Shown here one piece after another: positions 2,965-6,934 of a DNA stretch of 8,307 nt. The stretch is from the IMG/VR virus record IMGVR_UViG_2740892234_000024; one strand, 5' to 3'. Each line of letters starts with the position of its first letter. Position 1 is the stretch's first letter. The notes below the pieces were generated by a model that was given only the letters and a program-made list of their open reading frames with translations, had not been told where the DNA came from and ran no database searches. This DNA is from a virus. Its lineage: Duplodnaviria; Heunggongvirae; Uroviricota; Caudoviricetes. Made by a program: the position numbers and the translations under genes.

Positions 2965-3241
2965 GACCTTCCTCCTTTGGCTTGTGAATTTGTATCGTCA
3001 TGCCGCTTTGAGTGGTGACTACAACGACAGAACCAGGCTGAAGGCTGTTAAGATTGAATGCTTCGTAAAATGAATCCAAGGCCAGTGCTTTTTTATTCTT
3101 TCGGTTCCACCAACGCCATCCCTTGCTACAGGCTACACTGACAATCCACTGTCCACTCCTATAAGCCAAATAAAACCAGATGAGCAAAACCTGAAGGAAT
3201 GCTATCCAGTCAATAATCGTATATTTCGCGAAGGAGTCCAT
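2957..3241 (-). CDS. Small membrane protein (one predicted transmembrane helix)
   Basis: ORF with hydrophobic stretch IIDWIAFLQVLLIWFYLAY; ATG at 3241-3239 overlaps the upstream stop (TGATG), AGGAGG upstream. The track start at 3244 is a TTG. Confidence 0.5.
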   Translation of the reverse strand: MDSFAKYTIIDWIAFLQVLLIWFYLAYRSGQWIVSVACSKGWRWWNRKNKKALALDSFYEAFNLNSLQPGSVVVVTTQSGMTIQIHKPKEEGRG

Positions 3242-3852
3242 CAATTAACCTCCTGCGGCGGTTCTGGTAGCGGCATCCAGTGGGTTACTCCATGCCATAT
3301 ACCAGTTAAGGTTTCAAACCTTGGCTCTCTGCCTTTCTGTGTCTTGGCATATTCATTCCTTGTATATACGCATTGTCTAACTGCATATTCATTCCATCCA
3401 ATAACTGTTTGTCTAATTTCTGGCATTCGCTCACTACAGCTTATCCAACCATCCGGAATTACCGGAGAGTTGCCAGCCTCATACGCCACACGCATCCAGT
3501 GCATAAGCGTTTCAGTGCTCACACATCCGCAATCAACGTCTATTTTTTCTTTTTGTTCTGACAACCATTCCTGGAATGACAGCTTGGCAGTCTGGCTTGC
3601 TGGCTCAATTCGTGGCAGGCCGATATATAGCGGTACATTTCCCGGATCCATCGAATTGTCGGGACAAATAAACGTGTTACAACCATATTTAACGAGCTCA
3701 ATTCCCGCGGTGTCGATAGTGGCGAATGGTTCAGCGGTCAATGCAGTCAACGCAATTTCATAAGCACGGCGCTCAATATTGTCCCGCACCCCCAGACTGC
3801 TGATATGTTCTTTAATTTCTTTAATTAGCTCTTTGTCGGTAATAGTGGTCAT
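3241..3852 (-). CDS. DUF551/Eaa-like phage protein
   Basis: 203-aa ORF ending in ...GIWHGVTHWMPLPEPPQEVN, the tail I associate with DUF551-type proteins of lambdoid early-left regions. Confidence 0.65.
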   Translation of the reverse strand: MTTITDKELIKEIKEHISSLGVRDNIERRAYEIALTALTAEPFATIDTAGIELVKYGCNTFICPDNSMDPGNVPLYIGLPRIEPASQTAKLSFQEWLSEQKEKIDVDCGCVSTETLMHWMRVAYEAGNSPVIPDGWISCSERMPEIRQTVIGWNEYAVRQCVYTRNEYAKTQKGREPRFETLTGIWHGVTHWMPLPEPPQEVN

Positions 3853-3854
3853 AG

Positions 3855-4046
3855 CTATTTCACCTTAATCTCAACATTTCGCAGCTTTAGCTCTACTGGC
3901 ATGTCTGACTTTCCTGTTAATGCTAATGCGAGATTTTCTGGAGTAATGAGAGCAGTTATTGTTTTCCCCATCGCCAGACGAATAATCATTCGTATCTCGC
4001 GATCGTCACATGCTCCCGGTCGAACAATTGAGATTTGTCCGTTCAT
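3855..4046 (-). CDS. Hypothetical 63-aa protein
   Basis: ORF whose ATG follows the conserved junction sequence GGAGAGTGAGATG that supplies its RBS; no family recognised. Confidence 0.5.
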   Translation of the reverse strand: MNGQISIVRPGACDDREIRMIIRLAMGKTITALITPENLALALTGKSDMPVELKLRNVEIKVK

Positions 4047-4047
4047 C

Positions 4048-4071
4048 TCACTCTCCTTTGATGCGAATGCC
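4048..4071. repeat. 24-bp gene-junction repeat tcactctcctttgatgcgaatgcc, copy 1 (identical copy at 5965-5988; degenerate relative near 4543-4568)
   Basis: Exact 24-bp identity read directly. On the minus strand it encodes the tail GIRIKGE plus TGA and contains the GGAGAG RBS for the next gene. Confidence 0.9.
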
Positions 4072-4539
4072 AGCGGTACTCATTCTCCTGATTTCCCAGA
4101 GCACACGAGGAATACCACCGTTTCCGACCGGATCGCGTTTACTCCGCAGGGCGACGCTTGATTCCGCCCAGCTTTTTCTTGGAGGAAGCTCTTTCACACG
4201 AACAAAACCAGCTGCGCGAAGAGATGCTCCTGATTCATCTGCCTGGGTGTACGTAATACAACGTTGATAACCCATAGCTTTTGCTGCCCGCCAGACAGCA
4301 CCATAAAGCGCGCTGTTAGCGTTGCGTTCTCCTGTGGTACATGTGCGATTTACTTCAAGCGTTAATCCATCGTCCAAATGTCGTGCAACAGGTCGACCAG
4401 CTGTCGCCACACCTATCAATTCTCCGGCATTATTTCTCAGACCAATGCTGAATTTATGCCCCACTGGTGGTTTATTGTGTCGGTGGTGCTGTGCGATAAA
4501 TTCCTGCGCCGCTTTCAGCGTTATAGGTGAAATGACCAT
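4048..4539 (-). CDS. Conserved phage protein of unknown function (possibly GNAT-like fold) carrying an Ea22-type C-terminal tail (...GIRIKGE)
   Basis: About 163 aa; ATG at 4539 overlaps the upstream stop (the GTG at 4542 is the alternative). C-terminus matches the tail of the Ea22-like gene at 5965-6467. The fold guess is from loose motif resemblance only. Confidence 0.6.
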   Translation of the reverse strand: MVISPITLKAAQEFIAQHHRHNKPPVGHKFSIGLRNNAGELIGVATAGRPVARHLDDGLTLEVNRTCTTGERNANSALYGAVWRAAKAMGYQRCITYTQADESGASLRAAGFVRVKELPPRKSWAESSVALRSKRDPVGNGGIPRVLWEIRRMSTAGIRIKGE

Positions 4540-5132
4540 CACTCAGACTCCTCCTTGATGCCAGCGGCGCTTGCTGATTCTTCATATGCGCGTTTAGCAG
4601 CGTTAAGGATTGCTGCCAGTGGCGTATAGCCGCCATCCATTCGGATTGTGTTGTGGATGCCAGCCATTGTGTCGCGCAATTTGCTGTGGCTAGCAGACAG
4701 TTCTGCTATGCGCTTACTTCCATCCGCGATTACTCCCTCGTAATACTCGCGTTGCTCGTTGAGTTTTGATTTTGCTTCCTCAAGCTCAACACGCAGTTTC
4801 CCTACCGTTAGCGCAATATCCTCGTTCTCCTGGTCGCGGCGTTTGATGTATTGCTGGTTTCTTTCCAGCTCATCCAGCAGCGCCAAGACGGTAGCCGGAT
4901 TGGCTGCGGCGATGAATTCAGCATTGGCCTGCTGTTCCATTTGGAAATCTTCATCGAAACCGCTTTCAGGATGCGCTCCTTCAATTCTGCAAATGGGAAT
5001 ATATCCAGCAGCCTCGCGATGAATTAGTGCATCATCACCATCAAATCGGCTCTCTCCATATTCGAGAGACCACTCACCACACGTTGCTTTTTCTGCCTTT
5101 TCACGCAGTACCTGATAGTCAATCTTGCTCAC
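4539..5132 (-). CDS. Ea22-like family protein, paralog 1
   Basis: Coiled-coil core LLDELERNQQYIKRRDQENEDIALTVGKLRVELEEAKSKLNEQREYYEGVIADGSKRIAEL matches lambda Ea22 as recalled. Preferred start is GTG at 5132 (VSKIDYQVLRE...) with AGGAGG 6 nt upstream and GTGA overlap with the upstream stop; the ATG at 5165 is probably an over-extension. Confidence 0.7.
   Translation of the reverse strand: MSKIDYQVLREKAEKATCGEWSLEYGESRFDGDDALIHREAAGYIPICRIEGAHPESGFDEDFQMEQQANAEFIAAANPATVLALLDELERNQQYIKRRDQENEDIALTVGKLRVELEEAKSKLNEQREYYEGVIADGSKRIAELSASHSKLRDTMAGIHNTIRMDGGYTPLAAILNAAKRAYEESASAAGIKEESE
4778..4878. repeat. About 100-bp repeat, copy A (in Ea22-like paralog 1); copy B is at 6161-6262
   Basis: Direct comparison shows about 7 mismatches in 100 bp; encodes the shared coiled-coil segment. 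Copy B runs into the N-gap at 6263. Confidence 0.9.
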
Positions 5133-5963
5133 TGGTTTCCTCCTTTGCGAATCTGTTCCGCCCATTCTTCAAGGGATTTCTCCGCATATTCACCAGACAG
5201 GCCATCAATCGGATGCGCTTCATTAGCCAACTCTTCTTTCGCTGACAAAATCATGCGTGTAACGTCGAAAACTTCACGCAAAGACTTATTGATAAATCCG
5301 TGATTGAAAGCAGCAGCAAGACGGCTTGCGGTATAGTTAATACCCTCGTTGCGAGCCGCCGCACGAATTTCAGCCAGGAAAGCGTCGGTGGCTGGGGTTT
5401 CCGTGAAGTTGTCCTCCCAACCGTAGTACTCCTGACGACAGAAGTTATTAAATTCCTTCTCCGACTGTTTAAGCTCCGCATTCTCTGCCGCCAGCACCGA
5501 AAACTTCTCGTGTGCCAACTTAACAGCCGCATCAGCCTGCTTAATTNNNNNNNNNNCCGGGTTCTTTAATGTGCAAGCGAGGCTCACCATCTTTTGGCTC
5601 AGGCCACTGGCGCTCCATGTTGATCTTCAATTTATCTTCCATAGCAGCGGTAATTTCAGCATCGCTGATGCCAGCACGGCGCTGTGCATCCCACAACAGA
5701 AACTGCATATCAGCCCACTCGCTAAGATCGTCTGGTTCGGCTGCGGCTTCCAGTGCCTCTTTTGAGAGATGTTTCAGCGGACCAATGGGGCCAACGCAGC
5801 CAAATGTGGAGTCAGACCATTTGGCATGCTCGTGGCGAATCTGTTCGCGTTCCAGTGATGCCAGTGCAATTCGTGCCAGTTCCATTTGTTCGCCACGAGT
5901 AAGTCCGTTATCAAGCGGATTTTTAATGAATAATTTGATACGTTCTTTGGTTATAGCGCTCAT
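5129..5963 (-). CDS. MazG-like NTP pyrophosphohydrolase domain protein (DUF550-type dATP/dGTP pyrophosphohydrolase-like), interrupted by the N-gap at 5547-5556
   Basis: N-terminal part (5557-5963) has the all-alpha MazG-type acidic pattern (EALEAAAE ... EWADMQFLLWDAQRRAGISDAEITAAMEDKLKINMERQW). The C-terminal part (5129-5546) continues after the gap in a shifted frame. Start ATG at 5963 follows GGAGAGTGATATG. Confidence 0.55.
5547..5556. other. Assembly gap (10 N) inside the MazG-like gene
   Basis: Run of N; reading frames on the two sides differ, so the true gap length is unknown. Confidence 0.95.
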
Positions 5964-5964
5964 A

Positions 5965-5988
5965 TCACTCTCCTTTGATGCGAATGCC
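5965..5988. repeat. 24-bp gene-junction repeat, copy 2
   Basis: Identical to 4048-4071. Confidence 0.9.
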
Positions 5989-6467
5989 TGTTGCAATGCT
6001 GTTTATGATGCTGTCAGTGCATGGGGTAGAAAGCTGGGCATCTCCAGCAATTCTCATGACCTCAACATCTGCATATCGAATACCGAGGTGTATCAGACCG
6101 GCTATACCTGACTTAAGCCGAGCATTTTCCATAAACAGATCCTTTGCACGCTGTTTTTCTGCCTCAAGCTCAACGCGCAACTTCCCTACCGTTAACGCAA
6201 TATCCTCGTTCTCTTGGTCGCGGCGTTTGATGTATTGCTGGTTTCTTTCCCGTTCATCCAGCNNNNNNNNNNTTGGTCTTCGGCCAGCTCCGCTAAATTA
6301 GCCTCCAGTTCGGCTATGCGTTCGTTTAATGCATCTCGTTCATCCAGTAGCGCCAGCACAACCTGAGGTGTGACTTTCATACGAAATGCCAGCAATTTTT
6401 GAGGCGTTGCTACTGTTTCAATTGCTACTGCCGCCTCACGCAGTGCCTGAGAGTTAATTTCGCTCAC
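5965..6467 (-). CDS. Ea22-like family protein, paralog 2, interrupted by the N-gap at 6263-6272
   Basis: N-terminus MSEINSQALREAA..., coiled-coil segment and C-terminal ...GIRIKGE all match lambda Ea22 as recalled. ATG at 6467 overlaps the TraR-like stop (ATGA). Confidence 0.7.
6161..6262. repeat. About 100-bp repeat, copy B (in Ea22-like paralog 2)
   Basis: See copy A at 4778-4878. Confidence 0.9.
6263..6272. other. Assembly gap (10 N) inside Ea22-like paralog 2
   Basis: Run of N placed at the edge of a roughly 100-bp repeat shared with paralog 1. Confidence 0.95.
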
Positions 6468-6685
6468 TTCGAACCTCTCTGTTTACTGATAAGCTCCAGA
6501 TCCTCCTGGCAACTTGCACAAGTCCGACAACCCTGAACGGCCAGGCGTCTTCGTTCATCTATCGGATCGCCACACTCACAACAATGAGTGGCAGATATAG
6601 CCTGGTGGTTCAGGCGGCGCATTTTTATTGCTGTGTTGCGCTGTAATTCTTCAATTTCTGATGCTGAATCAATGATGTCTGCCAT
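6464..6685 (-). CDS. TraR/DksA-family C4 zinc-finger protein
   Basis: 73-aa ORF with CCECGDPIDERRRLAVQGCRTCASCQ (CxxC-x17-CxxC), the DksA/TraR-type zinc finger. Confidence 0.75.
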   Translation of the reverse strand: MADIIDSASEIEELQRNTAIKMRRLNHQAISATHCCECGDPIDERRRLAVQGCRTCASCQEDLELISKQRGSK

Positions 6686-6728
6686 CTTTCATTAATCCCT
6701 GAATTGTTGGTTAATACGCTTGAGGGTG

Positions 6729-6738
6729 NNNNNNNNNN
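6729..6738. other. Assembly gap (10 N) between the two copies of the TraR-like 5-prime region
   Basis: Run of N flanked by near-identical 188-bp sequences. Confidence 0.95.
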
Positions 6739-6884
6739 ACCAGGCGTCTTCGTTCATCTATGGGATCGCCACACTCACAACAATGAGTGGCGGATATAGT
6801 CTGGTAGTTCAGACGACGCATTTTTATTGCTGTATTGCGCTGTAATTCTTCAATTTCTGATGCTGAATCAATGATGTCCGCCAT
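6739..6884 (-). pseudogene. Partial second copy of the TraR-like gene (N-terminal 48 codons, cut off by the gap)
   Basis: ATG at 6884-6882 opens a frame encoding MADIIDSASEIEELQRNTAIKMRRLN... that runs into the N-run. Confidence 0.5.
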
Positions 6885-6934
6885 CTTTCATTAATCCCTG
6901 AATTGTTGGTTAATACGCTTGAGGGTGAATGCGA

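Follow-up and report, generated by a model that had tools for sequence, protein, structure and literature searches.

Short conserved sequences at gene or module boundaries have long been described in lambdoid phages; the work of Susskind and Botstein (1978) and, for phage HK620, of Clark, Inwood, Cloutier and Dhillon (2001, J Mol Biol 311:657), as cited in PMC3029335 and PMC2327257, presents such boundary or linker sequences as foci of homologous recombination. Where homologies are short or diverged, exchange has been attributed mainly to Rad52-like phage recombinases (PMC2327257, Martinsohn et al. 2008; PMC3945230, De Paepe et al. 2014). The ea22 gene is itself a known mosaic, with a conserved N terminus and coiled coil followed by C-terminal domains unique to each variant (PMC7093339, Dydecka et al. 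2020; PMC10834534, Goddard et al. 2024), and Ea22 proteins share a basic-Gly-Glu ('+GE') end, the significance of which was called unknown (PMC7093339). Here we analyse a 24-nucleotide (nt) junction sequence, hereafter the block, that occurs twice in an 8,307-nt stretch of tailed-phage DNA (IMG/VR record IMGVR_UViG_2740892234_000024; the whole stretch is referred to as the window), each time ending one gene immediately ahead of the next. The best explanation, to which we give a probability of roughly 80%, is that the block is a translational coupling element that doubles as a patch where phage recombinases make crossovers.

The sequence TCACTCTCCTTTGATGCGAATGCC lies at 4048–4071 and again at 5965–5988, with no further match in the window at up to three mismatches, and none of 200 dinucleotide-preserving shuffles contained two copies of it. 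Its codons on the coding (minus) strand are GGC ATT CGC ATC AAA GGA GAG TGA, that is, GIRIKGE followed by the stop codon. An earlier reading made from the letters of the window (the sequence-only reading) had proposed this exact pair, with its position and its tail, and the search and the shuffles bear it out. Copy 1 (GGCATTCGCATCAAAGGAGAGTGA; 4048–4071, minus strand) provides the last seven codons and the stop of a Mom-like open reading frame (ORF; 4048–4542), which ends ...RRMSTAGIRIKGE and is followed by a single G and then by the ATG (4046–4044) of an ORF of 63 amino acids. Copy 2 (5965–5988, minus strand) provides the last seven codons and the stop of an Ea22-like ORF (5965–6467) ending ...SIATGIRIKGE, followed by a single T and then by the ATG (5963–5961) of a DUF550 gene. 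At both copies AAGGAG stands 6 nt before the ATG, and both encode ...IKGE, a basic-Gly-Glu C terminus. The repeat grows to 32 nt at 94% identity (4040–4071 and 5957–5988; repeat family D7) because the ATG of the next gene is included. When we oriented 126 occurrences of the 24-mer on the coding strand, from 120 viral-contig loci, TL-2011a, HK620 and the window, an ATG or GTG stood one base past the TGA in 123. To judge from its sequence, the GGAG in the block probably acts as the ribosome-binding site (RBS) of the next gene.

The block is widespread. The exact 24-mer was found in at least 120 IMG/VR viral contigs, and a 37-nt consensus of the block matched 389 phage records, among them lambda, HK620, Stx phages, P22-like phages and P1-like phages (P7, SJ46 and D6). 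The same consensus was matched in 3087 of 5426 complete E. coli genomes, at up to 11 places per genome (median 2), with 439 places on plasmids. The lambda ea22 gene ends ...HMMSDAGIRIKGE and stop with the exact 24-mer, after which there is non-coding DNA and no start codon. In phage P7 (L139, AF503408; 2847–4050), the Ead-like gene upf88.3 ends in the exact block and is followed by a gene of downstream family D2 (families as clustered below). SJ46, D6 and E. coli plasmids of about 95 kb are P1-like plasmid prophages that bear the block. The sequence-only reading had placed the element in lambdoid phages, which holds for lambda, HK620 and other lambdoid carriers and is too narrow for the P22-like and P1-like ones. 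No recent exchanges between the lambda-like and the P1-P2-Mu groups were seen in an earlier survey (PMC3945230), whereas P7 and other phages of the P1-like kind carry both the block and a gene of the Ead-like type.

A search of a genome collection returned 38 bacterial contigs with the 24-mer, and we rejected their taxonomic range as a real distribution: 33 of the 38 are 99.3–100% identical to lambda over most of the contig sequence compared and represent lambda DNA contaminating public assemblies. These lambda-identical contigs sit in assemblies from unrelated organisms, Streptomyces, Bacillus, Shewanella, Prevotella and Streptococcus among them, often at about 1x coverage. Some lambda-like contigs are about 48.4–48.5 kb long, such as NODE_20 of Shewanella canadensis (L165; 48,542 bp) and two Pseudomonas spp. 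contigs of about 48.4 kb (L171 and L181). Among the loci from this collection (L164–L201), the only genuine-looking hosts are Escherichia spp., Shimwellia and two contigs of gut metagenome-assembled genomes.

To see which genes the block joins, we clustered the 200 nt on each side of the 121 junctions with enough flanking sequence. They fell into 14 upstream (U) and 18 downstream (D) families in 53 combinations, as against 70.5 ± 2.6 expected under random assortment (Cramer's V 0.49), a pattern in which linkage across the joint is, as far as the clustered flanks indicate, mostly and not completely broken. There were 322 pairs of loci with at least 98% identity over 150 nt upstream and unrelated sequence downstream, 134 pairs with the converse, and 102 alike on both sides. 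In the window, copy 1 joins U7 to D1 and copy 2 joins U1 to D3; a further locus, L048, has the U1 body joined through the block directly to D1, as would result if the two direct copies in the window, which are 1917 nt apart, had crossed over with each other. Points at which similarity between the window and related loci ends cluster at 4040–4079 and 5960–5969, and among family representatives conservation drops to background beyond about −9 and +4 (the N-ATG). The partly conserved stretch out to −9 is CGCGCCGCT (Arg-Ala-Ala). The block measures 24 nt exactly and about 31–37 nt with its partly conserved edges counted. Flank divergence within families is mostly 1–10%, and higher in two loosely aligned downstream families, whereas the tail itself is nearly uniform from family to family.

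The sequence-only reading had taken the 24-mer for a short linker used to swap gene modules. The 24-mer proved to be abundant in other phage genomes and not tied to one pair of neighbours, and the 53 combinations and the 322 and 134 discordant pairs support that reading, which needs some refinement as to the carriers. We also considered a toxin–immunity-like pairing of each Ea22 C-terminal domain with the gene downstream, and rejected it, as the families are largely re-assorted.

We then asked whether DNA or peptide is conserved. Among the first 122 loci we found no close variants of the 24-mer at up to 6 mismatches: there were only exact copies and a NIGIKGE-type tail. Three degenerate scans of the IMG/VR collection, less biased than loci chosen by exact match, gave a finer picture. 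With all third codon positions left free, 16 of the 120 contigs listed differed from the block (GGT, GAA, ATT and one GAC). With the first and second positions of codons 5–7 free, 0 of the 120 listed differed. With the first and second positions of codons 1–4 free, we recovered DIRIKGE in 5 contigs, GIGIKGE in 2, VICIKGE in 1 and NIRIKGE in 1, in addition to the NIGIKGE family. The Shine–Dalgarno part of the block, AAAGGAGA (positions 13–20), showed zero variation in the 120 contigs listed. The first 12 nt change rarely, by substitutions that alter the amino acid (G>D, R>G, G>V, R>C and G>N) about as often as by silent ones, which indicates that the peptide is not what is conserved. Judged from these alignments, the block's pattern fits an RBS combined with a stretch of DNA that recent common descent or ongoing exchange has kept uniform.

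A functional C-terminal peptide, in which the shared tail ...AGIRIKGE would be a degradation tag, a localisation signal or a partner-binding motif, would account for a tail that is always in frame and always terminal, and for the common basic-Gly-Glu end noted in Ea22 proteins. Besides the nonsynonymous variants in codons 1–4, however, synonymous sites are nearly fixed, which selection at the protein level does not predict, and the invariant KGE codons coincide exactly with the Shine–Dalgarno sequence. Mom-like homologues in other phages, moreover, function without the tail, and we regard a peptide role as highly improbable.

Most upstream families are Ead/Ea22-like, with the Ead_Ea22 domain in 8 of the 10 family representatives scanned; these carriers have a conserved start (V/M-S-K/E-I-D/N-Y-Q-A-L-R-E), a coiled-coil core, differing C-terminal domains and then the common tail. 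The tail is thus primarily the conserved 3′ terminus of genes of the ead/ea22 type, as in lambda. The two carriers in the window differ: that of copy 2 has the Ead_Ea22 domain, and that of copy 1, the Mom-like ORF, is without it. The 'unrelated protein bodies' of the sequence-only reading are thus real in the case of the Mom-like gene and of an HNH_3/AP2 endonuclease, truly unrelated carriers that form a minority, while most bodies belong to one family, Ead/Ea22, and differ in their C-terminal parts. Homologues of the Mom-like protein in Pectobacterium phage ZF40 (70% identity) and in a Mycobacterium abscessus prophage (55%) end ...LWEVRR and ...LWEAV, respectively, and the E. coli version runs on past these ends with MSTAGIRIKGE. 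Both homologues stop just short of it, which marks the tail as an addition to the Mom-like fold.

Compared with the published accounts of the Ea22 '+GE' end, our data concern the same gene family and the same K/R-G-E end, and lambda ea22 ends in the exact 24-mer. The motif was treated there as protein, whereas here the codons AAA GGA GAG are the Shine–Dalgarno sequence of the downstream gene, read in frame, and form part of a longer block conserved at the DNA level that is also found on non-Ea22 genes. A small published puzzle would thereby be answered, the '+GE' end being the predicted RBS of the next gene. For annotation, the block carries a warning that a common C-terminal peptide on unrelated prophage proteins need not imply a common function.

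From these observations we propose that the block is a translation-initiation and coupling element at the 3′ end of ead/ea22-type genes in the early-left operon of temperate enterobacterial phages. In it, AAAGGAGAG, in frame as Lys-Gly-Glu, holds AAGGAG 6 nt ahead of a start codon that itself lies one base past the TGA. Since near-identical blocks are present in many co-infecting and resident phages, they offer about 27–32 nt of exact identity within otherwise unrelated DNA, which may be enough for annealing-type phage recombinases (Red-beta, RecT and Erf). Crossovers inside the block would re-assort what lies upstream, variable Ea22 C-terminal domains and occasionally other genes, against at least 18 downstream families, and every product of such a crossover would receive an in-frame stop and a ready-made RBS. 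A second exchange could take place in other shared segments, which are plentiful in the region (the type B junction and intragenic joints described below, and the Ea22 core). We infer homologous recombination within the block, the enzymes involved and the use of the Shine–Dalgarno sequence from comparison of the sequences.

Where two junctions have different flanks on either side, the run that they share exactly has a median length of 28 nt (interquartile range 27–32). The minimal efficient pairing segment is 23–27 bp for Red-beta and 31–34 bp for RecA (PMC3945230), and the median run therefore stands at the pairing threshold, adequate for Red-beta-type enzymes only. The studies of Rad52-like recombinases (PMC2327257, PMC3945230) are alike in showing Red-beta, RecT and Erf at work on phage–prophage homologies that are short or diverged. 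They are different in that the homologies there are hundreds of bp with divergence, rather than an isolated patch of about 28 nt.

Several points weigh against a crossover patch. A length of 24–32 nt is the lower limit of efficient homologous exchange, and a cassette swap requires a second exchange in other homology. Recombination is deduced here from comparative patterns, and some joints could be illegitimate in origin and then selected. Upstream and downstream families remain significantly associated (chi-square 382; permutation mean 223), so that assortment is not free. The loci were picked for containing the 24-mer, which makes its invariance partly a matter of ascertainment that the degenerate scans correct only partly, and the codon-position counts (such as 16 and 0 of 120) are of contigs and not of independent events.

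A role as RBS and coupling element only, with the combinations arising by illegitimate recombination at random sites and joints at gene ends then being selected (the Juhala/Hendrix view), would agree with the Shine–Dalgarno half (positions 13–20) being the sole strictly invariant part, with a start codon coming right after the block in nearly all copies, and with illegitimate recombination being the prevalent explanation in the literature for most mosaic joints (PMC2327257, PMC3029335). An RBS, however, needs about 6–9 nt, which leaves the near-identity of the 12 nt upstream, synonymous sites included, unexplained across 14 families. Independent illegitimate events would also give varied fusion points, whereas every family joins the block at the same position and in the same frame, and lambda keeps the exact 24-mer though no start codon follows it. 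We consider this explanation decidedly unlikely.

A dedicated site-specific system would be a different route to the same mosaic, with the block as the recognition site of its own recombinase, in the manner of integron attC sites or a shufflon. The arrangement is cassette-like, with one short recurring site and many different genes on either side, as at attC, and the window does hold a tyrosine integrase gene (576–1910). That integrase, however, is an ordinary prophage integrase adjoining the wrbA attachment site, and the block occurs alongside quite different phage integrases, as well as in P1-like plasmids; the region holds several further conserved joints that are unrelated to it, some of them intragenic, which fit general homologous recombination better. 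Furthermore, attC sites are imperfect palindromes, the folded single strands of which are the substrate of a dedicated integrase, whereas the block lacks such symmetry and structure, lies inside coding sequence and has a predicted RBS. A repeat search of the window found no inverted repeat at the junctions, on which grounds an attC-like palindrome was rejected. Rfam gave no match in the window, and folding of the four junctions was on a level with that of shuffled sequence (z −0.32 and −0.08), with no sign of a structured RNA. A site-specific exchange system is, in our estimation, extremely improbable.

Considered as a linker, the block resembles the lambdoid boundary sequences closely: both are short and conserved at gene ends, occur in many dissimilar phages and have non-homologous flanks in varied combinations, and HK620 itself carries the exact 24-mer at its hkaG/hkaF junction. 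The abstract of the HK620 genome report is said to describe seven sequences bounding functional modules. The block differs in bounding single genes, and the domains of one family, within the ea/exo-xis region. The element is thus already known in kind, its concept having been published in 1978 and 2001, and it leaves the accepted picture unchanged. What we add is modest: numbers for its spread and combinations, the '+GE' end as an in-frame Shine–Dalgarno sequence, grafting onto non-Ea22 genes, and presence in P1-like phages. A literature search for the sequence of the block or its peptide string returned only lambda primer sequences in unrelated papers. The block nonetheless offers a clear, quantifiable case for the debate between short conserved linkers and random illegitimate joints followed by selection. 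With its presence in lambda and in more than half of complete E. coli genomes, and a length at the Red-beta pairing threshold, it is also a ready substrate for a direct test.

Other joints in the region bear on how general such exchange may be. An unbiased search for 12-mers that have varied contexts to the left and to the right recovered the 24-nt block first. The search also recovered a second kind of junction, type B (window 5128–5146), which the sequence-only reading had missed. In the window (5128–5155, minus strand) it reads ...CAGATTCGC AAAGGAGGAAACCAGTGAG, encoding the tail ...EQIRKGGNQ of a 153-amino-acid ORF; it has a predicted GGAGG RBS, and its stop and the start of the Ea22-like gene that follows overlap in GTGA. 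Its general form is ...CAGCTTCGC AAAGGAGGCAACCAGTGAGC, with the tail ..QLRKGGNQ and a GTG start overlapping the TGA, and it precedes Ea22-type genes; we counted 55 copies in the fetched loci, in about 19 upstream (left) and 9 downstream (right) contexts. The search further recovered the C-terminal tail of DUF551, ...WMPLPEPPQEV (window 3249–3261, minus strand), with a GGAGG embedded before the next gene, and two intragenic joints: ...ELARIALASLEAEP (5842–5879, minus strand; ...ELARIALASLE(A/R)E), near the N terminus of the DUF550 gene, and PDGWISC (3434–3456, minus strand), where the DUF551 domain starts. At these intragenic joints the same principle seems to serve the shuffling of domains.

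These joints can also be read as anchors of a maintained diversification system, as opposed to a passive mosaic, in which the ea22 locus would preserve them at the DNA level for rapid exchange of effector-like C-terminal domains and accessory genes. The anchors would be the type B start junction with its SKIDYQALRE leader, the 109-nt coiled-coil core, the GIRIKGE tail with its stop, and the joints ELARIALASLEAEP and PDGWISC. We think this unlikely. If true, exchange would span lambdoid and P22-like phages on the one hand and P1-like plasmid prophages on the other, and the tail would be under second-order selection for evolvability in addition to selection as an RBS.

The degenerate relative of the tail that had been pointed out near the start of the Mom-like gene is real, and its likeness is weak and distant. 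This sequence, CGCTGGCATCAAGGAGGAGTCTGAGTGA (4539–4568, minus strand), ends the Ea22-like gene at 4539–5132 in ...SAAGIKEESE and stop, shares CCGCTGGCAT, the GGAG core and GAGTGA with the canonical tail, and has a stop that overlaps the Mom-like gene's start. The fetched loci contain 3 copies of it, in 2 upstream contexts and always with the same downstream gene, and a role for it as a shuffling joint is accordingly unsupported. The Ea22 body of this gene bears the canonical tail in another locus (L065; family U12). A distinct related tail, ...EACQ(S/A)V NIGIKGE (AACATTGGCATCAAAGGAGAGTGA), occurs in L007 (3494–3517) and in 11 other loci; in some phages it precedes the Mom-like gene, which is there bracketed by two tail-type sequences.

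The window as a whole covers the left end of a prophage of lambdoid (Stx-phage-like) type, integrated beside wrbA; the 3′ end of wrbA occupies 1–579, ahead of the integrase gene. The remainder is a row of small genes, all on the minus strand, of which 3800–6500 belongs to the early-left operon as its 'ea' or exo-xis part; in E. coli, the window's best matches carry the annotations wrbA, integrase, ead/Ea22-like and DUF551. Piecewise matches to 3800–6500 were found in 468 phage records, and 0 cover 80% of it. Parts of the window were present in 5423 of the 5426 complete E. coli genomes searched, with a best single-place coverage of at most 59%, so that the mosaic nature of the region is already visible in this piecemeal distribution. 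The window's combination of ea genes appears unique among these genomes.

Within the row, a DUF551 gene (3241–3852; Pfam) is followed by the 63-amino-acid gene downstream of copy 1 (family D1; 3855–4046, minus strand), which has no Pfam match. The Mom-like gene (family U7; 4048–4542, minus strand) encodes an acyltransferase-type protein of 164 amino acids, grafted tail included; it matches Pfam Mom at E 3e-5, below the curated cut-off, and its tblastn homologues are annotated 'Mom-like DNA modification protein' or 'acetyltransferase'. The Ead/Ea22-like gene with the variant tail (4539–5132, minus strand) has a GTG start at 5132–5130 and scores E 1.7e-39 against Ead_Ea22 (for the ORF 4539–5165). 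The 153-amino-acid ORF that ends in the type B junction (5129–5590, minus strand) has its 5′ part obscured by a run of N, and the DUF550 gene downstream of copy 2 (family D3; 5541–5963, minus strand) belongs to the dATP/dGTP pyrophosphohydrolase family (PF04447, E 3e-42). The Ea22-like gene that ends in copy 2 (family U1; 5965–6467, minus strand) gives Ead_Ea22 E 1e-9 for the ORF 6192–6467, and the representative of its family scores E 4e-31. The conserved coiled-coil core of the window's two Ea22 paralogues forms a 109-nt direct repeat at 92% identity (4770–4878 and 6154–6262, minus strand), a second and longer patch of homology between them.

Three runs of exactly 10 N interrupt the window, at 5547–5556, 6263–6272 and 6729–6738. 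The second falls within the 503-nt Ea22-like gene at 5965–6467, and as given its two halves do not share a reading frame, owing to either a frameshift in the gene or an N mask that is not length-preserving. The third lies between the copies of a 188-nt tandem direct repeat (96%; 6541–6728 and 6740–6927) that duplicates the 5′ part of a TraR/DksA-type zinc-finger gene (6464–6685; Pfam), with ORFs at 6464–6685 and 6711–6884.

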